Of a stretch of 9,357 nucleotides of DNA, positions 1,739-8,990 are shown piece after piece. Position 1 is the first letter of the stretch; each line of letters opens with the position of its first letter. Position numbers and translations under genes: made by a program. Source of the stretch: a virus (taxonomy: Duplodnaviria; Heunggongvirae; Uroviricota; Caudoviricetes); the IMG/VR virus record IMGVR_UViG_2537562195_000004; one strand, given 5' to 3'. The notes beneath the pieces are model-generated. The model did no database searches. It had not been told where the DNA came from and saw nothing but the letters and a program-made list of their open reading frames with translations.

Positions 1739-1945
1739 ATGGAAGCAATCAAAAAAGTCATCTTTCGCCAGGAAGTAAAAAAACTTATCCACATTAAGGC
1801 AGACAGCACGCTGCAAAGCATGATCAACGCCGGAGAATTCCCGCAGGGTTTTCGTGTCGGTTTGCGCCGTCGCGGATGGTATGAGGAAGACGTAATCGCA
1901 TGGATGAAAGAACGAGAACAAGAAGCGCGCGGAACGACCGCTTAA
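1739..1945 (+). CDS. alpA: AlpA-family phage regulatory protein (Vis/excisionase-like helix-turn-helix)
   Basis: 68 aa; pattern ..L..MI.AGEFP.G...G.R.RGW.E.DV..WM is typical of AlpA/Vis proteins next to P4-type integrases. GAGG RBS at 1726-1729. Confidence 0.85.
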   Translation: MEAIKKVIFRQEVKKLIHIKADSTLQSMINAGEFPQGFRVGLRRRGWYEEDVIAWMKEREQEARGTTA

Positions 1946-2066
1946 CATATATAGGGCAAATGATGAACATAAAAAAAGCGGCCCCGAAATGGAGCCACCT
2001 TTCTGAACAATTAACCCGCTGCGCCGTATGTGTCAACAATCATAAGCTTGGGCATGATAACCGCGA

Positions 2067-2270
2067 TCAGGCTGGTGGGCAATTATCTTTCTTGTTGGGG
2101 CCGTATTGTGCTGCCATTTTCATCCGTTCAGAACGTGAATATTTTTTTAGAAACTCATCAAGGACAAAAGCGCATGGTGCGAATCTTTCTGATTCATGCT
2201 CGAGCGCCATATTTTCGTGCTCTCTGTTCGTTTTTTGCGATGGTGTATCGGTTGATTCTTTATTGGTCAT
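2067..2270 (-). CDS. Hypothetical small protein, 'MTN' paralogue C (second gene of RHH cassette 1)
   Basis: 67 aa. Paralogous to 2721-2948: both start MTN + S/T/Q-rich N-terminus and share C-terminal motif F.L(D/E)(E/D)F(L/V).KY(S/P)R. Start preceded by conserved ACAGG. Family unknown. Confidence 0.45.
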   Translation of the reverse strand: MTNKESTDTPSQKTNREHENMALEHESERFAPCAFVLDEFLKKYSRSERMKMAAQYGPNKKDNCPPA

Positions 2271-2278
2271 TGTGTGTA

Positions 2279-2322
2279 CCTGTAAAGCAATGCGCCGTAG
2301 TACCTCACGCCACGGCGCTGAT
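2279..2322. repeat. 44-bp conserved palindromic intergenic element, copy 1
   Basis: cctgtaaagcaatGCGCCGTagtacctcacgccACGGCGCtgat; 43/44 identical to 2957-3000. 7-bp inverted repeat GCGCCGT (2292-2298) / ACGGCGC (2312-2318) with 13-nt loop. The single difference (2309) is in the loop. Confidence 0.8.
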
Positions 2323-2327
2323 GTTTT

Positions 2328-2501
2328 TTATCCTTTGGGTTCAATACCGCGTTGCTGTAATTCTTTTCGGAGTACTCGCTTGATCCAGGTGGCTAAAGAA
2401 GTGTCACCGTCTGCTTTCGCTGCCTCTTCAAGTTGTGCTCTGAATTCTTCTGGTAGCCGCATTTGGTATGGAGGCGATCGCTTTTCCAATGGTGTTGACA
2501 T
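2328..2501 (-). CDS. Ribbon-helix-helix (Arc/Mnt/MetJ-type) DNA-binding protein; not in the supplied ORF track
   Basis: Hand translation of the minus strand: MSTPLEKRSPPYQMRLPEEFRAQLEEAAKADGDTSLATWIKRVLRKELQQRGIEPKG (57 aa, stop at 2328-2330). Fits the Arc/Mnt beta-strand/helix/helix pattern (P.x.hRhP.E.....A...G.S.N..I...L). AGGG RBS; start abuts palindromic operators. Confidence 0.7.
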   Translation of the reverse strand: MSTPLEKRSPPYQMRLPEEFRAQLEEAAKADGDTSLATWIKRVLRKELQQRGIEPKG

Positions 2502-2543
2502 GGTAATTACCCTTAATTACTATAGTTACATGGTAATTACCAT
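2495..2543 (+). promoter_or_regulatory. Divergent promoter/operator region I: sigma70-like promoter overlaid by two GGTAATTACC palindromes
   Basis: -35 TTGACA (2495-2500), 17-bp spacer, -10 TACTAT (2518-2523). Perfect palindromes GGTAATTACC at 2502-2511 and 2532-2541 (second extends to ATGGTAATTACCAT, 2530-2543); centres 30 bp apart. A possible minus-strand -10 TATAGT for the RHH gene lies in the same region. Confidence 0.5.
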
Positions 2544-2568
2544 TGTACTTACCGTTATACAAAAAACA

Positions 2569-2680
2569 ACGCCCCGCAGTGGTGGCTCACATATGGGGCG
2601 TCTAACCAAACCATTAATTGAGGTAACGATTATGGCTATAAAAGAGCATAGCTTACTCTTTATACACACACAAACGCCCC
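2569..2680 (+). repeat. Leader module copy 1 (orphan): hairpin, RBS, ATG and ~16 codons homologous to the Icd-like gene leader
   Basis: Hairpin cgcccc (2570-2575) / ggggcg (2595-2600), then tctaaccaa, GAGG, ATG at 2632 encoding MAIKEHSLLFIHTQTP (compare MVAVNHIPHLVHTQTA at 3378). Similarity then ends. On the minus strand the hairpin is followed by TTGTTTTTT, so it is terminator-like for minus-strand transcription. Confidence 0.6.
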
Positions 2681-2681
2681 G

Positions 2682-2701
2682 GAAACGGAATAATCCGTTT
2701 C
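2682..2701 (-). other. Perfect 8-bp hairpin just 3' of the upstream MTN gene (putative RNA 3'-end structure)
   Basis: GAAACGGA-ataa-TCCGTTTC, 20 nt downstream of the stop of the 2721-2948 minus-strand ORF. Confidence 0.4.
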
Positions 2702-2720
2702 ATGGTTCCGTCTTGTGCAC

Positions 2721-2948
2721 TCATCCTGGCGGTCGGTTTTTGCCGGATTTAAGCCGCCGTGGGTATTTATCGACAAAATCTTCAAGGGCAAATTTTTCTG
2801 GTGGCACTAAGCGCGGCGCTGGTGGTGGTATTTTTGTTCTGGTTAGTTCTTCCTCAAGTCTGGCGCAGGCTTCTGACTGCCTTTGCCGGATGATTTCATC
2901 ATCTTGCGTTTGCGTGTCTTGTATTGGTGATAGTGTGTTGTTGGTCAT
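2721..2948 (-). CDS. Hypothetical small protein, 'MTN' paralogue B (second gene of RHH cassette 2)
   Basis: 75 aa, paralogous to 2067-2270. Preceded by conserved ACAGGG and the 44-bp element. Family unknown. Confidence 0.45.
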   Translation of the reverse strand: MTNNTLSPIQDTQTQDDEIIRQRQSEACARLEEELTRTKIPPPAPRLVPPEKFALEDFVDKYPRRLKSGKNRPPG

Positions 2949-2956
2949 GATACTGC

Positions 2957-3000
2957 CCTGTAAAGCAATGCGCCGTAGTACCTCACACCACGGCGCTGAT
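2957..3000. repeat. 44-bp conserved palindromic intergenic element, copy 2
   Basis: 43/44 identical to 2279-2322. Same position in a 57-bp spacer between an RHH gene stop and an MTN gene start. Confidence 0.8.
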
Positions 3001-3005
3001 AGTGA

Positions 3006-3185
3006 TTATTCTGATTCTTTGGCCTTGCGACGCTGGCGGCGTTTGATTTCGCCGCGCATGGCTGCGTTTATAAACTGCCCCGTGCTTTCACCTTCTTCTT
3101 TCACGTTCTCCATGCCTTCAATAATTTCATGGGCAATACGTGCAGTTACAGATTGTGATTTTGCATTCTTTGGCCCCGTTGCCAT
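3006..3185 (-). CDS. Small RHH-like DNA-binding protein (putative repressor of the Icd-like/rep operon promoter)
   Basis: Preferred start is the ATG at 3185 (MATGPKNAKSQSVTARIAHEIIEGMENVKEEGESTGQFINAAMRGEIKRRQRRKAKESE), preceded by GAGGGG at 6-nt spacing; the track start at 3224 lacks an RBS and would place operator copy O1 in coding sequence. Pattern VTARIAHEII....GES.GQFINAAM resembles Arc/Mnt. Fold assignment is by eye. Confidence 0.5.
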   Translation of the reverse strand: MATGPKNAKSQSVTARIAHEIIEGMENVKEEGESTGQFINAAMRGEIKRRQRRKAKESE

Positions 3186-3206
3186 GTTTAACCCCTCATG
3201 TTTTTG

Positions 3207-3287
3207 GTGTAAGACAATATACACGAAAAAAAAATATTTTGAAGGGTTGACGTGTAAGACACCGTTATTTTACATTGTGTCTTACAC
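3207..3287 (+). promoter_or_regulatory. Divergent promoter/operator region II: three copies of GTGTAAGACA(C) around a + strand promoter
   Basis: GTGTAAGACA at 3207-3216, GTGTAAGACAC at 3252-3262, inverted GTGTCTTACAC at 3277-3287 (the last two form an 11-bp perfect inverted repeat with 14-bp spacer). -35 TTGACG (3247-3252), 17-18 bp spacer, -10 TTACAT/TACATT (3270-3276). Same architecture as region I with different operator sequence. Confidence 0.5.
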
Positions 3288-3318
3288 CTTGTTGATGCAA
3301 GGTACAGAAAAGACGAAA

Positions 3319-3431
3319 CCCCGCAGTGCTGGAACACATACGGGGCTTCTAACCAACAACGTAAACGAGGAGCCGTTATGGTTGCCGTAAATCATATACC
3401 ACACCTTGTACACACACAAACTGCCTTTGTG
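3319..3431 (+). repeat. Leader module copy 2 (functional copy, upstream of and overlapping the Icd-like gene start)
   Basis: Hairpin ccccg (3319-3323) / cgggg (3341-3345), tctaaccaa, GAGGAG RBS, ATG at 3378. 33/39 identical to copy 1 over the hairpin core by manual alignment. On the minus strand the hairpin is followed by a U-rich stretch. Confidence 0.6.
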
Positions 3432-3578
3432 TGGCGTTTTCTGGCACTGAGTGCCGGAGAATCTCAAATCATCCACGTAACCGCCTGGACGGAACGCGAA
3501 GCGCGTAGCCGTTGCCCGTCCGGTTGTGTTGCTGTATTCGCTGCCCGTATTCGTCAGGGGGAAACCTATGCACAATAA
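3378..3578 (+). CDS. Small protein, probably Icd-like (host cell division inhibitor-like, as in P1 icd / P4 kil region)
   Basis: 66 aa; pattern F.WRF.A......II.V.A.TEREAR...P.G.V.VFAARI matches my recollection of Icd-like proteins annotated in P4-like prophages. Strong RBS. Family assignment from memory, not a search. Confidence 0.5.
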   Translation: MVAVNHIPHLVHTQTAFVWRFLALSAGESQIIHVTAWTEREARSRCPSGCVAVFAARIRQGETYAQ

Positions 3579-3798
3579 AACCACACCGGACGCAGCAGAA
3601 GAAGCAATGCAAATACTGATACGTGCGCTCGTTGATGTTACCCACATGGTGGAGATTATGGAGAGAAAATCACAGTCGGAGCACGACAAAAGAAAACTTA
3701 AAACAATAAAAATAATTGCCAAAAACTCGCTGATAAAAGTTACAGACATCCTTAATGAGGACATTAAAAGAATAAGGGAGAAAATTTGTGATGCATAA
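3568..3798 (+). CDS. Hypothetical small basic helical protein X1 (in AT-rich insert)
   Basis: ATG at 3568 with AGGGGGA RBS; overlaps the Icd-like stop by 11 nt. 76 aa, K/R-rich. Local GC about 33% against about 50-60% in flanks. No family recognised. Confidence 0.5.
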   Translation: MHNKTTPDAAEEAMQILIRALVDVTHMVEIMERKSQSEHDKRKLKTIKIIAKNSLIKVTDILNEDIKRIREKICDA

Positions 3799-4018
3799 AA
3801 TCCCTTTTGAAGTATTAATCCACTCTGAAAACGCATTAATTAAAGCACGCGAAATGAATGCGTTGTTAATTAAATTAATTGAAGTGCCGGAAGGTGGTGA
3901 GGAATCAGGTGTATTAATGTTTGCAGCCATTCAGACATTACTATCGCCTGTTATTGATGAACTGGATAAGGCAATGGCAATTCACGAAAATAATAACGCG
4001 CCCCACACCGGAGAATAA
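3791..4018 (+). CDS. Hypothetical small acidic helical protein X2 (in AT-rich insert)
   Basis: ATG at 3791 with AAGGGAG RBS; overlaps X1 stop by 8 nt (translational coupling). 75 aa, E/D-rich. No family recognised. Confidence 0.5.
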   Translation: MHKIPFEVLIHSENALIKAREMNALLIKLIEVPEGGEESGVLMFAAIQTLLSPVIDELDKAMAIHENNNAPHTGE

Positions 4019-4023
4019 AAATA

Positions 4024-4323
4024 ATGAAACTTAAATATTCTGGCTTAACTGCCAGTGGCAACACTCACCCTAAATTTACGCGCGGTGATATTTACCGCGA
4101 CCAGTACGGCGGCACGGTAATGATTAAGGGCGTGGCGGGACGGTGCGTAACTTACCGCCGTGAAGGTTACGAATATGATTGCGTGATGCCTGTTTATCAG
4201 TTCCGGCGTGATTTTTCTCTGGTACAGACCGCGCCGCATAACGTGCCCACCAGCAACGCCAGGGCACGGGCAAACATCCAGAAGCTGAAAACCATGATTA
4301 ACGGATTCAGGGGTAAAAAATGA
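4024..4323 (+). CDS. Hypothetical protein X3
   Basis: 99 aa; GGAG upstream. Stop TGA overlaps the rep ATG (ATGA at 4320-4323). No family recognised. Confidence 0.5.
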   Translation: MKLKYSGLTASGNTHPKFTRGDIYRDQYGGTVMIKGVAGRCVTYRREGYEYDCVMPVYQFRRDFSLVQTAPHNVPTSNARARANIQKLKTMINGFRGKK

Positions 4324-5729
4324 AACTGGCACCGAACGTAAAACTATTACCGAAAGACAAATACACCGATGCGATTATTTTTGCGGGTATTGATGCTCAC
4401 TCATTCGCAGAGCATTACATCATTGCACAGGCAAAAAAAGCAGGAGATCCAGTCCCTCCCGTTTATCTGGGGCGTTATCAGTTAAGCGAACTGGATAACC
4501 TCCAGATTGTTGATGATGGGCGATACAGGGCGACGGTGATACGCGCCGGAAATATTGAAGAGCCGCAGCTGTTAACCATCGCCACGAAACTGGCGATCGC
4601 CGGAGTCCAGGAGGCGCGGCTACTTTCTGAAAATTTCGAATTGCTGGAGGAATGGAGCGACCAGCTTCCACGGCTTAGGGAGGCATGGGAACGCGGGGAA
4701 AGCCTGGTCATGAAAAAAATCCCCCAGCGAAAAACCACGCTACCGATGAGCGTTGGATCTACCGGATACGACACACAGCTTGATTACGTGGTAAAGGGGA
4801 TTATTCCGGCATCGTCGCTTTGCAGCATATACGGGGCGAGCGGTTCCTATAAATCATTCCTTGCCGGATCGTGGGCGTGTCACGTTTCCACGGGCCGCCA
4901 GTGGGGAGGCCGCAGGGTGGCGCATGGCGCTGTTCTCTATGTGGTTGGTGAAGGCGGTATCGGCGTTCCGCGTCGTGTAAAAGCCTGGGAGGTTGTACAC
5001 GGGGAGCAGGTGAAAAATCTGTATCTGGTAAACCGTCCGGTCTTTCCGGCTGTCCCGCTTGATGTTGATGAACTGGTTATCGCTGCCCGTCAGGTGGAGC
5101 GGGAAACGGGTAAACCTGTACGCATGATTATTCTGGATACGCTGGCGCGGTGCTTTGGTGGCAATGATGAAAATGATTCCCGTGATATGGGGGCGTTTAT
5201 CCGTGGTTGTGACGAACTGAAACGGCGCACAGGGGCCACGGTGCTGGTGGTTCACCATTCCGGCAAGGATGAGACGAAAGGCGCGCGCGGTTCCAGTGCA
5301 TTTCGTGCTTCGCTGGATGCTGAATACCGGATACGCAGAGAGGACGCAGGCAGCGAAGCGCTGGTTATCTCATGCACCAAAATGAAGGACGCGGAGGAAC
5401 TCAAAGAAGCCGCATATGACTTACGCGTGGTGGAGCTTTTTACCGACGCTGACGGGGAGTTAATTACGTCGCTGGTGGTGGTGGATAAGCCGCGCCCTCC
5501 CGTTGAACTGGAGCGCATCGAGGAGGCAGGCAACAAGACGGAAAACCATACCGCGCTATGGGGGTGCATACGTTCACGCACACAGCACGGCGACAAGTGC
5601 ACGATCCCGCTGTTACGTGACGATATGAAAAAGCTGGGGTATGACACAAAACACCTTAAACGATGGTTAGCCAAACTGGAAAAAGACGACGTGATCTACA
5701 TTGACGGTGATGATGTAGGACCACTGTAA
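4320..5729 (+). CDS. RepA-like replicative ATPase/helicase (RecA-fold, AAA_25-type) with a C-terminal putative origin-binding domain
   Basis: 469 aa. Walker A GASGSYKS, Walker B RMIILD, and VLVVHHSGKD motif typical of AAA_25/RepA-like phage and plasmid helicases. Lies immediately upstream of the iteron array. Confidence 0.8.
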   Translation: MKLAPNVKLLPKDKYTDAIIFAGIDAHSFAEHYIIAQAKKAGDPVPPVYLGRYQLSELDNLQIVDDGRYRATVIRAGNIEEPQLLTIATKLAIAGVQEARLLSENFELLEEWSDQLPRLREAWERGESLVMKKIPQRKTTLPMSVGSTGYDTQLDYVVKGIIPASSLCSIYGASGSYKSFLAGSWACHVSTGRQWGGRRVAHGAVLYVVGEGGIGVPRRVKAWEVVHGEQVKNLYLVNRPVFPAVPLDVDELVIAARQVERETGKPVRMIILDTLARCFGGNDENDSRDMGAFIRGCDELKRRTGATVLVVHHSGKDETKGARGSSAFRASLDAEYRIRREDAGSEALVISCTKMKDAEELKEAAYDLRVVELFTDADGELITSLVVVDKPRPPVELERIEEAGNKTENHTALWGCIRSRTQHGDKCTIPLLRDDMKKLGYDTKHLKRWLAKLEKDDVIYIDGDDVGPL

Positions 5730-5730
5730 A

Positions 5731-5928
5731 AAGTGGGCATTAAAAGTGGGAAAGGTGGGAGATTTAACGTAATTTTAACAAAATTACCCACTTTCCCACG
5801 TGTATATATCCCAAAAAGTGGGCACTAAAAAAATACCTATGAAACAAGATGATATAAATCCCAAATTTCCCACGTTGGACGAAGTGGGAAAACGTAAAAA
5901 GTGGGCGAAAAAAGTGGGTAGAGGTGGG
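5731..5928. repeat. Iteron array, putative origin of replication
   Basis: Eight direct copies of AAGTGGG/AGGTGGG (starting 5731, 5744, 5753, 5816, 5882, 5899, 5912, 5922) plus inverted copies (CCCACTTT 5787-5794, CCCAC 5795-5799 and 5869-5873), interspersed with AT-rich segments (5761-5786, 5823-5865). Begins 2 nt after the rep stop. Confidence 0.65.
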
Positions 5929-5931
5929 CAA

Positions 5932-6189
5932 ATGACTCAAAAACACAGAGACAGAACAGAGCCAAAATATAAAGCGTTAGACATGACAGAGCACGCCTTA
6001 AAGGTGGCAATCAGAACGATAGACCGCCACGCGGGGGAAGGATACGCGAAAGAACATCCCGACCTGATAAGCGCATTCATGACCACAGCAGCGGCAAACT
6101 TTGCCACGCTGACAGAACGTGAGATTGCCGAAGCGGAACAGGTAACAACCATCAACGTAAAAACCGGAGAGTCAGGCGATGATACATGA
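5932..6189 (+). CDS. Hypothetical protein downstream of the origin
   Basis: Preferred start ATG 5932 with GAGGTGGG RBS (the last iteron). The longer track ORF from 5800 translates the iterons (KKWAKKVGRGG) and is probably not real. Overlaps the PerC-like gene start by 11 nt. Confidence 0.45.
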   Translation: MTQKHRDRTEPKYKALDMTEHALKVAIRTIDRHAGEGYAKEHPDLISAFMTTAAANFATLTEREIAEAEQVTTINVKTGESGDDT

Positions 6190-6451
6190 CCGCATAGCGG
6201 AGGAACTCGAGGCGAAAGGATTTTACCGGAGGGCGGCGGCGCGATGGGGTGAAGTCATGCAGCTGGTGGAGACAGACAAGGAACGGCATCAGGTTACGAT
6301 GCGACGGCTGGAATGTTCCAGGAAAGCACAGAGGCAACCGGAGCCGCCGGATAACTTCGGAGACCTGAGAAAGGCAGTAGATCGCACTTATGCTGAAATG
6401 GGTATAGATGGTGTAAGCGATGAAATATGGTGTAATTACCAGGACAGCTAA
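6179..6451 (+). CDS. PerC-family transcriptional regulator (PerC/Pch-like)
   Basis: 90 aa; N-terminal DRIAEELEAKGFYRRAAARWGEVM matches the PerC-family signature (AE.LE.KG.WRRAA.RW) as I recall it. Followed by an intrinsic terminator. Confidence 0.6.
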   Translation: MIHDRIAEELEAKGFYRRAAARWGEVMQLVETDKERHQVTMRRLECSRKAQRQPEPPDNFGDLRKAVDRTYAEMGIDGVSDEIWCNYQDS

Positions 6452-6909: not shown

Positions 6910-7104
6910 ATGCCAGAGAACAACACCAGAAAGCCGGATAAAAGTGCCACGGTACACATAGACGCCGGAACTATGGAGAAGATCGAACGCTATCAGCAGT
7001 TCATCAAAGATAATCACCCGGGTATGCCGGTACCCACGAAAGGACAAATCACACGCAGCGCGGTTGAATACTGGTACCAGGCAACGTTAGGAGCCTGGCT
7101 ATGA
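6910..7104 (+). CDS. Small protein, possible RHH-like DNA-binding protein, translationally coupled to the protease-capsid gene
   Basis: ATG at 6910 preceded by GGAGG (6897-6901). Stop TGA overlaps the next ATG (ATGA at 7101-7104). Pattern TVHIDAGTMEKIERYQQFI...TKGQITRSAVEYWYQ is compatible with strand-helix-helix. Weak call. Confidence 0.4.
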   Translation: MPENNTRKPDKSATVHIDAGTMEKIERYQQFIKDNHPGMPVPTKGQITRSAVEYWYQATLGAWL

Positions 7105-8990
7105 AAACATGGTTTTCCATTAAGGCTATGGCAGATGTTGTCTATGTGCGTATTTATGACGAGATCGGCGGGTACGGTGTAAAAGCATCGACACTTACTG
7201 ACGAGATCAACGCGTGCGGTAATGCGTCTGAAATCCATCTTCGCATCCATTCACCTGGTGGCGACATCTTTGAAGGGCTGGCTATCTATAACGCCCTGAA
7301 AAATCATCCGGCAAAGAAAATTGTACACATTGAAGGCATGGCGGCTTCTATGGCCTCGTTTATTGCCATGTGTGGCGATCACATCGTTATGCCTGAAAAC
7401 GCGATGATGATGATACATGCCCCCCGTGGTGTTACTGCCGGAGTGTCGGGCGACGTTCGCCGCTTTGCTGACCTGATGGACAAGCTGGGCGACACGATGG
7501 CGGAAACCTACGCCGGAAGAACGGGCAGGAGCAAACAGGAGATCACCTCAATGATGGAGGCGGAAACCTGGATGGATGGCAATGAGTGTAAGGCTAACGG
7601 CTTCGCAGATGAGGTTATACCCGCGATTACAGCAATGGCCCGAATTGAATCAAAACGAATCGGAGATTTTTCAAATATGCCGGAAAAAATTAAAAGCATG
7701 ATCAGCCAGAAAACTGGCAGTGGCGAACAGGAACGACTTAACGGAATCCGTGAATTGTTTGGCACCTTCAACGGAAGATATAACGACCTGGCTATAAGTT
7801 GTCTTGCGGATTCAGAATGTAGCGTTGAGAATGCACGCGAACGCCTTTTACTCGCTATGGGTAAAGAATCAACGCCAACAAACAAAACCACCCCCGCAAA
7901 TCTTTACTACGCGTACACGGATAACGGCAATATAACCGGCGATGCCATGCGTCAGGGGCTTAATGCGCGTCTTGGTCACGAACGGGCCGAACGCGGTAAT
8001 CCTTACGCCATGATGAGCCTTTTCGATATGGCACAGGCATCATTAACCCATCGTGGTATAAGCACGGGCAGCTACAGCACACGCTCGCAGATAGTAAACG
8101 CGGCATTCACCCACAGCAGCAGCGATTTTACCGATATCCTTGCTGGTGGCGCTGAAAAATCAGTGCTTGCAGGCTGGGAGCACAGCGGCGAAACATTCCG
8201 CCAGTGGACGAAAAAAGGTTCCCTTTCAAACTTCCGGGAAGCCCGCCGCGTTGGTATGAATGGCTTCTCAACGTTAAACAAAGTGCCGGAAGGGGCAGAA
8301 TATAAATACATTACCACCAGCGATCGCGGTGAACCCATCGCGCTGGCTACTTACGGGAATATTTTCAGCATTACCCGCCAGGCGATAATCAATGATGACC
8401 TTGATCAGTTATCAACGGTGCCAATGGCTATGGGCCGTGCAGCATCAAGAACGGTGGGAAATCTGGTTAATCTGGTGCTTACAGGCAACGTAAAACTTTC
8501 TGACGGAATAGCGCTGTTTGACAAAAAACACAGCAACCTGATTGAAGCAGGACTGACAACACCGGGACTTAGTGCAGCACGTCACCTGATGCGCACACAG
8601 AAGGACAAAAATGGCGAAGTGCTGAATATTGCGCCTAAATTCCTTTTAGTTCCGGCAGCACTGGAAGATCGCGCGTTGCAGATGATTAACTCAACCGCAC
8701 CTTTCGGGGCTGATAAAAACAGCGGGATCTTTAACCCGTATCACAAGCTACTTGATATCATCGTCGATCCCCGCCTTGATGATATCAGCGAAAAACAATG
8801 GTACATGCTTTCCGCACAGGGAACAGACACAATCGAGGTGGCTTATCTTGATGGCAATGACGAGCCTTACCTTGAACAGCAGGAAGGTTTTATCGTTGAC
8901 GGCGTGGCCTGGAAAGTCCGTATTGATGCAGGTGTGGCAGCTCTGGATTATCGCGGTATGGTCAAATCAGGCGGGACAGATTCACTATGA
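7101..8990 (+). CDS. Prohead protease (ClpP-like, S14 family) fused to a large C-terminal capsid-like domain
   Basis: 629 aa. N-terminal ~190 aa has ClpP-type motifs: GMAASMAS (catalytic Ser context, compare ClpP GQAASMG) and MMIHAPRG (compare MIHQP). The ~440-aa C-terminal part is of capsid-protein size and is followed by a strong terminator; the capsid assignment is an inference (confidence about 0.55), the protease assignment is stronger. Confidence 0.8.
   Translation: MKTWFSIKAMADVVYVRIYDEIGGYGVKASTLTDEINACGNASEIHLRIHSPGGDIFEGLAIYNALKNHPAKKIVHIEGMAASMASFIAMCGDHIVMPENAMMMIHAPRGVTAGVSGDVRRFADLMDKLGDTMAETYAGRTGRSKQEITSMMEAETWMDGNECKANGFADEVIPAITAMARIESKRIGDFSNMPEKIKSMISQKTGSGEQERLNGIRELFGTFNGRYNDLAISCLADSECSVENARERLLLAMGKESTPTNKTTPANLYYAYTDNGNITGDAMRQGLNARLGHERAERGNPYAMMSLFDMAQASLTHRGISTGSYSTRSQIVNAAFTHSSSDFTDILAGGAEKSVLAGWEHSGETFRQWTKKGSLSNFREARRVGMNGFSTLNKVPEGAEYKYITTSDRGEPIALATYGNIFSITRQAIINDDLDQLSTVPMAMGRAASRTVGNLVNLVLTGNVKLSDGIALFDKKHSNLIEAGLTTPGLSAARHLMRTQKDKNGEVLNIAPKFLLVPAALEDRALQMINSTAPFGADKNSGIFNPYHKLLDIIVDPRLDDISEKQWYMLSAQGTDTIEVAYLDGNDEPYLEQQEGFIVDGVAWKVRIDAGVAALDYRGMVKSGGTDSL

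Follow-up and report, generated by a model that had tools for sequence, protein, structure and literature searches.

A 202-nt gap between rep, a RepA-type helicase gene, and a gene encoding an 85-a.a. protein is filled with copies of a short repeat in a small island of the E. coli chromosome. Do these repeats form the replication origin of the island, and is the neighboring Rep the protein that reads them? The initial annotation had proposed an iteron-type origin of this kind. We addressed the question in the whole 9,357-nt stretch of DNA containing the gap (the window), together with sister islands of E. coli and related loci of other genera.

The window is 100% identical to positions 3170244–3179600 of the chromosome of E. 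coli strain 4 (NZ_CP045209.1), in which the island adjoins tRNA-Pro between yejM and yejO/narP. The genes are ordered as tyrosine integrase, AlpA-like regulator, small minus-strand genes, Icd-like gene, DUF4222 gene, rep, the repeats, 85-a.a. gene, PerC gene and a ClpP-protease/major-capsid fusion. The window is a satellite island of the PICI type and shows all of the hallmarks: int, a regulator of the alpA type, unidirectional transcription, an att site of its own and a size of about 10 kb. The yejM-luxR region is the attachment site of EcCIATCC25922, EcCIED1a.1, EcCI11128 and EcCI11368.1 (Table S1, PMC6092414). EcCI11128 shares the att site and the left half of the island, its AlpA and DUF4222 proteins are identical to those of the window, and its Rep is a sister allele accompanied by AAAGTGGGGAG iterons. 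Among the genes of the window's island we identified neither a primase nor terS or par genes, and the RepB and RepC genes of IncQ replicons were likewise absent. In the same chromosome, the origin query matched at two places and the whole window at six, indicating further related islands in the same cell.

The repeats were analyzed as matches to ARGTGGG. The window contains nine, all of which fall within 5731–5928: eight on the plus strand, starting at 5731, 5744, 5753, 5816, 5882, 5899, 5912 and 5922, and one on the minus strand at 5787–5793. Dinucleotide shuffles of the window gave 1.8 matches on average, and none of 200 shuffles reached nine. Two further minus-strand copies have the variant ACGTGGG (5795–5801 and 5869–5875), which bears out the previously reported count of eight direct and about three inverted heptamers. 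When the 202-nt intergenic region alone was shuffled, which preserves its A-rich and G-rich composition, seven copies of one 7-mer did not occur in any of 5000 shuffles (maximum, five). In extended form, the iteron consensus is (A)AARGTGGG, and the next base is C, A or T. Since the rep stop codon TAA occupies 5727–5729 and the first iteron begins at 5731, the first heptamer starts at stop+2, exactly where the initial annotation had placed it. The features of the region are as follows.

4024..4323, plus strand: DUF4222 gene (Pfam DUF4222) of the replication module, overlapping the rep start by ATGA
4320..5729, plus strand: rep, encoding a 469-a.a. initiator-helicase (N-terminal alpha/beta region, a.a. 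1–126; helicase core, a.a. ~150–320; predicted winged helix, a.a. ~400–469)
5517..5726, plus strand: region encoding the predicted winged helix (a.a. 400–469)
5652–5654, plus strand: CAC codon of His445, the specificity-linked residue
5655–5684, plus strand: predicted recognition helix, a.a. 446–455
5731..5759, plus strand: left iteron cluster (AAGTGGG, AAGTGGG, AGGTGGG; spacing 13 and 9 nt), in register in eight sister alleles
5760..5786: AT-rich spacer 1, about 85% A+T, a candidate unwinding element with a small palindrome (GTAATTTT/AAAATTAC)
5787..5801, minus strand: inverted iterons (reverse complements of AAGTGGG and ACGTGGG), left arm of the head-to-head core
5800..5809: GTGTATATAT core, flanked by the head-to-head iterons and kept regardless of iteron type
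5816..5822, plus strand: direct iteron, right arm of the head-to-head core
5823..5868: second AT-rich stretch, about 78% A+T, likewise a candidate unwinding region, with conserved TAAAAAA and AAACA blocks
5869..5875, minus strand: third inverted copy (reverse complement of ACGTGGG), forming a palindrome with 5884–5891
5882..5928, plus strand: right iteron cluster, four direct copies at 5882, 5899, 5912 and 5922 (spacing 17, 13 and 10 nt)
5921..5934, plus strand: Shine-Dalgarno sequence GAGGTG and ATG of the 85-a.a. gene, overlapping the last iteron
5932..6189, plus strand: conserved 85-a.a. gene (phrog_1231), right border of the origin

The DNA between the repeats has low duplex stability, at 5760–5786 and at about 5825–5860. 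Spacer 1 is the least stable duplex of the region (dG −24.9, compared with a window mean of −33.9) and ranks sixth in the window among the least stable 25-mer regions; the second stretch is low as well, and other island DNA is less stable still. The earlier description of iterons interspersed with AT-rich DNA was thus correct as to the AT-rich stretches, but it overlooked the core of the region, which is a conserved head-to-head pair around a TATATA element, spanning 5787–5822 in the window. In single-stranded folding, the left direct and inverted copies form a hairpin (z = −3.2), which merely reflects the inverted repeats. The overlap of the last iteron with the ribosome-binding site of the next gene, also reported before, was confirmed: AGGTGGG at 5922–5928 overlaps GAGGTG at 5921–5926, a 6-nt anti-Shine-Dalgarno match, with the annotated ATG following 5 nt later, at 5932. 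This start is backed by an end-to-end PHROG match and by the EcCICFT073 orthologue.

In a search of 5700–5960 for DnaA boxes and IHF sites, neither TTWTNCACA nor WATCAANNNNTTR was present, the best DnaA-like site having two mismatches, and searches of the same interval for Fis and GATC patterns found none. A scan of 5400–6300 for sigma-70-like promoters and terminators revealed no promoter-like site, and its sole terminator-like hairpin lies inside rep on the opposite strand.

The helicase core of Rep belongs to Pfam AAA_25 (E 2e-44), and a.a. 155–319 match the RSF1010 RepA helicase 1g8y (E 1e-3) as well as RecA/Rad51 folds; the core is therefore RecA-type, not SF3/AAA+. Pfam gave no Rep_3 match in Rep, and no matches even at E 10 for the isolated N- and C-terminal pieces. 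In the AlphaFold model of the full-length protein (mean pLDDT 66), the N-terminal alpha/beta region and the C-terminal domain were confident and the remainder was poor. Foldseek returned only weak RecA/Rad51 matches, owing to the poor quality of the modeled core. When residues 394–469 were modeled alone, the pLDDT increased to 87, and the model has three helices and a beta hairpin, so that Rep carries the C-terminal winged helix of a PICI/SaPI initiator as a predicted fold. Helix 3 of this model (a.a. 446–455) is capped by His445, which is predicted to stand where a base-contacting residue would be expected. Over its N-terminal 126 residues, Rep shares 46% identity with the N-terminal part of EcCICFT073 Pri-Rep, a protein to which it is not related elsewhere. 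This region (4320–4700) and the DUF4222 protein (4024–4323) may recruit a primase or a host factor.

In a phage collection, Rep had no full-length homologue, the matches being confined to the helicase core, so the Rep/origin architecture seems confined to islands. A few full-length Rep homologues sit on records filed as plasmids. One such record is CP018459.1 (K. pneumoniae pKp_Goe_795-4, 16,971 bp, circular), which has a KSFPRW-type Rep relative, AAGTGCGGCA iterons and a CTGTATACAC core common to related loci, with the origin at 4867–5080 on the minus strand. This element encodes an integrase, a capsid protein, a head-tail adaptor and both terminase subunits, resembling a cf-PICI, and was apparently sequenced as a free circle, which lends weak support to autonomous replication of such rep-ori segments.

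The origin region matched 657 of 5426 complete E. coli genomes, with 68–100% identity, and we compared eight E. coli alleles with the window. The gap is 192–202 nt long in the E. coli alleles, except in L004, where the downstream gene is truncated. The alignment revealed a common order: three direct iterons, an AT-rich spacer, two inverted iterons, a TGTATAYA block, one direct iteron, an A-rich stretch that keeps TAAAAAA and AAACA, and four or five direct iterons. The third inverted copy of the window (5869–5875) is lost in the sister alleles, which have a direct copy there instead. The iteron core changes between alleles in every copy at once, including the inverted copies at 5787–5801, which are kept in all of the E. 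coli alleles. The iterons are AAAGTGGG in the window and L003, AAAGTGGGGAG in L005, L006 and L009, AAAGTGAGTA in L004, and AAAGTGAGG in L007, L008 and L010.

In the alignment of the E. coli alleles, the Rep differences linked to the iteron type occur only in the last ~60 residues. For example, the Rep proteins of L006 and L007 are 96–97% identical to that of the window, and their C-termini differ along with matching differences in the iterons. Within the motif K-x-[FLM]-x-R-W, three residues ahead of the RW, His is found with GTGGG and Asn with GTGAG in nine of nine E. coli loci; the window allele combines His445 in a DTKHLK helix with AAGTGGG followed by a non-G base. An exception to this covariation, in which an Asn-type Rep stands beside a mixed iteron set, is L010. 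Its hybrid origin (2031–2231, NZ_CP141863.1) has left and central GTGAG iterons that fit its Asn-type Rep and a right cluster with GTGGGG copies resembling those of His-type alleles; this suggests that recombination had a breakpoint within the origin.

The initial annotation had called for a motif scan of homologous islands. With one genome per species, we found 80 loci with Rep relatives (46–72% identity) in Xenorhabdus, Pantoea, Kosakonia, Kluyvera, Serratia, Pectobacterium, Morganella, Erwinia, Dickeya and two marine gammaproteobacteria, including one of the Oceanospirillaceae. Where the gene was intact (about 70 loci), 3–12 copies of a short repeat lay within 240 nt past the rep stop, and this repeat was rare in the other ~5.7 kb of each locus. 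The architecture recurred in 85 related loci of many genera, in the order of two or three direct iterons, an AT-rich spacer, a head-to-head pair around TATATA, an AT-rich stretch, and three or four direct iterons. The head-to-head pair, in which a direct iteron comes after an inverted one, was present in 75 of 76 loci, and 65 of the 76 had TATA within its spacer. Measured between the 4–5-nt cores, this spacer was 26 nt in 49 loci of different genera and 28 nt in nine more, seven of which are Ser-type loci scored with a 5-nt core. GTATAYA, where it occurred, was located 55–73 nt past the rep stop in 29 of 30 loci, against a background of 0.02 per 260 nt. In the His-type E. coli loci, the short-core search for head-to-head pairs picked up spurious CCCA matches, and the alignment is the better guide there. 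The fixed distance corresponds to about three helical turns, centre to centre. Because this distance is fixed and the centre easily melted, the head-to-head core suggests, by analogy, an arrangement in which two Rep assemblies would face each other.

Covariation was then scored at the residue three positions before the invariant RW of Rep. His accompanied GTGGG (131 copies, with a single GTGAG, in 15 loci), Asn accompanied GTGAG (221 copies, with five GTGGG, in 27 loci), Lys accompanied TGGGGG (153 copies in 28 loci) and Ser accompanied GTGCG (37 copies in seven loci). The His/Asn switch occurred in at least four helix backgrounds (DTKHLK/DVKNMR, EMKHFR/EMKNFR, NTKHFT/NVKNFS and DTKHFA/DTKNLA). 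Across the compared loci, the iteron sequence tracks one residue at the start of the putative recognition helix of the predicted winged helix. The region encoding the winged helix abuts the iterons, and co-inheritance therefore inflates the correlation between residue and iteron, part of which could come from a single co-inherited cassette instead of independent co-evolution. Even so, for about ten copies at each locus to change in concert, selection by a single reader is needed.

Other proteins of the island were considered as this reader. An identical DUF4222 protein (WP_000770163.1) is found beside three iteron types; the 85-a.a. protein is 84% identical to the EcCICFT073 orthologue, whose iterons are unrelated; and the packaging modules of L005 and L006 differ, while the iteron type is common to both. 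Thus, the DUF4222 protein, the 85-a.a. protein and the packaging module are excluded as the reader, since their distribution, unlike that of the Rep C-termini, does not follow the iteron type.

How does this region compare with known origins? In E. coli PICIs, the origin lies directly 3′ of rep and has AT-rich DNA between two sets of iterons (Fillol-Salom 2018, PMC6092414). The rep-ori segment of EcCICFT073 maintains a temperature-sensitive plasmid at the restrictive temperature; maintenance is reduced without the origin, giving only fewer colonies, and abolished without rep (PMC6092414). The window resembles these Gram-negative PICIs in the type of island, gene order, att site and mixed-orientation iteron sets. 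The gap is occupied by the origin in EcCICFT073 as well, with the Pri-Rep gene on one side and, on the other, an 85-a.a. gene 84% identical to 5932–6189 of the window; this origin contains 11 GGTAGA copies in both orientations around AT-rich DNA. Unlike the window, EcCICFT073 has a primase-family Pri-Rep, related to Rep over the first 126 residues only, and the iteron GGTAGAY. The comparison indicates that the position and layout are conserved, and that the initiator core and the iterons were exchanged together.

SaPI origins likewise lie right after rep and have 6–12 penta- or hexanucleotide iterons in opposite directions, with at least two on each side of an AT-rich centre, and the SaPI Rep is a self-loading helicase with a C-terminal winged helix that reads the iterons (Qiao 2022, PMC9371898). 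Judged at the level of sequence, the region in the window has every feature of a PICI/SaPI origin: it is directly 3′ of the initiator gene (stop codon 5727–5729, first iteron 5731), iteron clusters (5731–5759 and 5882–5928) are combined with AT-rich DNA (5760–5786 and 5823–5868), and iterons run in opposite directions (inverted at 5787–5801, direct at 5731–5759 and 5816–5822). The SaPI Reps are AAA+/SF3-related, whereas the Rep of the window has a RecA-fold AAA_25 core like RSF1010 RepA; as there is no sequence homology between them, the likeness is convergent or modular.

The alpha protein of satellite P4 combines primase, SF3 helicase and origin binding in one polypeptide with a C-terminal winged-helix-type domain; its iterons are octamers, and P4 requires a second cis element, crr, several kilobases away. 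The window shares with P4 the satellite lifestyle, short iterons, and a single polypeptide with a helicase and a predicted C-terminal winged helix. A second cluster of the crr type is absent, every ARGTGGG match of the 9.4-kb island being in 5731–5928, and there is no alpha-like protein. The origin is therefore not P4-type, and the P4-type layout suggested earlier is reduced to a loose likeness. The PICI authors also regard P4 as a separate lineage (PMC6092414).

The RepA-type hexameric helicase is common to Rep of the window and the IncQ plasmid RSF1010. Initiation in RSF1010 is iteron-dependent and DnaA-independent. RSF1010 has a separate RepC for its 20-bp iterons and a RepB′ for priming; in contrast, the predicted binding domain in the window is fused to the helicase, and the iterons are 7–10 bp. 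Classical iteron plasmids (pSC101, R6K, RK2, F and P1) differ further, with iterons of 17–22 bp and a Rep_3/WH1-WH2 initiator lacking a helicase; the window has a 7–10-nt core, a helicase initiator and no DnaA or IHF sites, and does not belong with them. At site II of SV40 large T and at the papillomavirus E1 site, inverted short repeats flank a melting centre, on which two hexamers assemble head-to-head. These viral origins belong to another helicase superfamily without homology to Rep, and the likeness concerns only how they work; a double hexamer in the window would follow from this analogy.

Taken together, the genetic context, the synteny, the architecture recurring in 85 loci and the covariation between iterons and Rep support the proposal of an iteron origin read by the adjacent Rep, and the repeats in 5730–5931 are very probably the Rep-dependent replication origin of the PICI. 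If they were instead operator sites, through which Rep or another island regulator controls the downstream genes (85-a.a., perC and capsid), for instance by occluding the Shine-Dalgarno sequence, they would have no origin function. GAGGTG at 5921–5926 shares bases with the last iteron and precedes the ATG by 5 nt, so that control of the translation of the 85-a.a. gene may exist as a secondary effect alongside origin function. As the sole function, however, regulation is unlikely: 5400–6300 has no sigma-70-like promoter or terminator, eleven sites over 200 nt with a TATATA-centered pair and AT-rich spacers are origin-like, the predicted binding domain is fused to a helicase, and the syntenic region of EcCICFT073 acts as an origin.

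Satellites bear helper cos or pac sites, and the cosB and parS regions have short repeated motifs, which would suit a packaging or partition site (pac/cos-like or centromere-like) for a small terminase or a segregation protein. We consider this very improbable, since the island lacks terS and par genes, the search for lambda cosN found no similar sequence, only 3-mismatch matches at the chance level, and the iteron type follows the Rep C-terminus, remaining the same in L005, with terS and capsid, and L006, with a protease/capsid fusion. Upstream of the 85-a.a. gene, its frame has no stop for 153 nt in the window and in L003, as expected if the repeats were the translated low-complexity N-terminus of a protein starting at GTG-5800. 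In six other alleles, however, the same frame is closed by stops 3–75 nt from the start codon, the intergenic lengths of 192, 200, 201 and 202 nt differ by non-multiples of three, and the PHROG family and the CFT073 orthologue begin at the ATG. These comparative data refute the idea that the repeats are a conserved translated part of a real protein, and the ORF at 5800, already described as mostly iteron translation, is by this comparison an artefact. A chance or slippage product without function is contradicted by the enrichment far beyond shuffles and by the position and orientation kept across genera, and we give next to no credence to a translated or functionless origin of the repeats.

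For the Rep-dependent origin, we propose the following mechanism. After induction, Rep, as a hexameric helicase of the RepA/RecA type, would bind the (A)AARGTGGG iterons via its C-terminal winged helix, with His445 at the N-terminus of the recognition helix reading the fifth base of GTGGG. Rep oligomers would build on the direct clusters at 5731–5759 and 5882–5928, and Rep would assemble head-to-head on the inverted/direct pair at 5787–5801 and 5816–5822. The TATATA core at 5800–5809 and the adjacent AT-rich stretches would then melt, the GTGTATATAT core being the proposed first melting or loading point, and the helicase would load itself without DnaA or DnaC. Rep binding, melting, self-loading and the source of priming are steps that we infer.

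We also put forward, tentatively, a broader reading in which these Reps would constitute a class of their own among self-loading initiators, with a RecA-fold (SF4, RepA-like) helicase fused to a winged helix. Specificity would depend largely on one residue: His would select G, Asn would select A, and other cores would go with Lys or Ser. The winged helix would be exchanged as a cassette along with the iterons, and the 26-nt TATATA-centered spacing would mark the loading of two opposed hexamers. If this is true, islands could change their origin specificity fast, for example avoiding cross-talk between PICIs sharing a cell.

An iteron origin directly after rep has been known for SaPIs since 2007 (Ubeda 2007) and for E. 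coli PICIs since 2018. With the layout in print and sister Rep-ori alleles among the islands listed in 2018, the finding of the origin itself amounts to a correct annotation, which provides exact origin coordinates for a satellite family that is very common in E. coli. Two aspects may be new, namely the covariation between residue and base and the invariant geometry around the TATATA pair: our literature search found no paper describing either, and a text search for the iteron string found no paper, the iterons drawn in Fig. 2a of PMC6092414 being outside its reach. The natural allele series, in which one residue goes with one iteron base, offers a design for studying how satellite initiators choose their own origin, and the same series could show whether co-resident islands stay replication-independent.

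Several other features of the islands were observed. In most sister islands (L002, L003, L004, L006, L008, L009 and L010), an ssb gene directly follows the 85-a.a. gene; the window's island is without it, and perC comes next. The ClpP-like prohead protease/major capsid fusion of the window (7101–8990, 629 a.a.) resides in a 9.4-kb island without portal, terminase or adaptor genes, and sister islands carry terS and capsid, or capsid and a decoration protein, in place of the fusion. On the plus strand, 1900–3390 is a 496-codon stop-free frame opposite four small annotated minus-strand genes (2067–3185). Its translation is Ser- and Cys-rich, contains the internal repeat CKAMRRSTS.HGAD twice and has no PHROG match, and the frame is probably non-coding antisense. 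Finally, 3369–3578 has PHROG matches on both strands, with the plus-strand Icd-like gene matching phrog_29966/1743 and the minus-strand ORF 3282–3836 matching phrog_4106 (E 7e-46); one of these families was probably built from antisense ORF calls.
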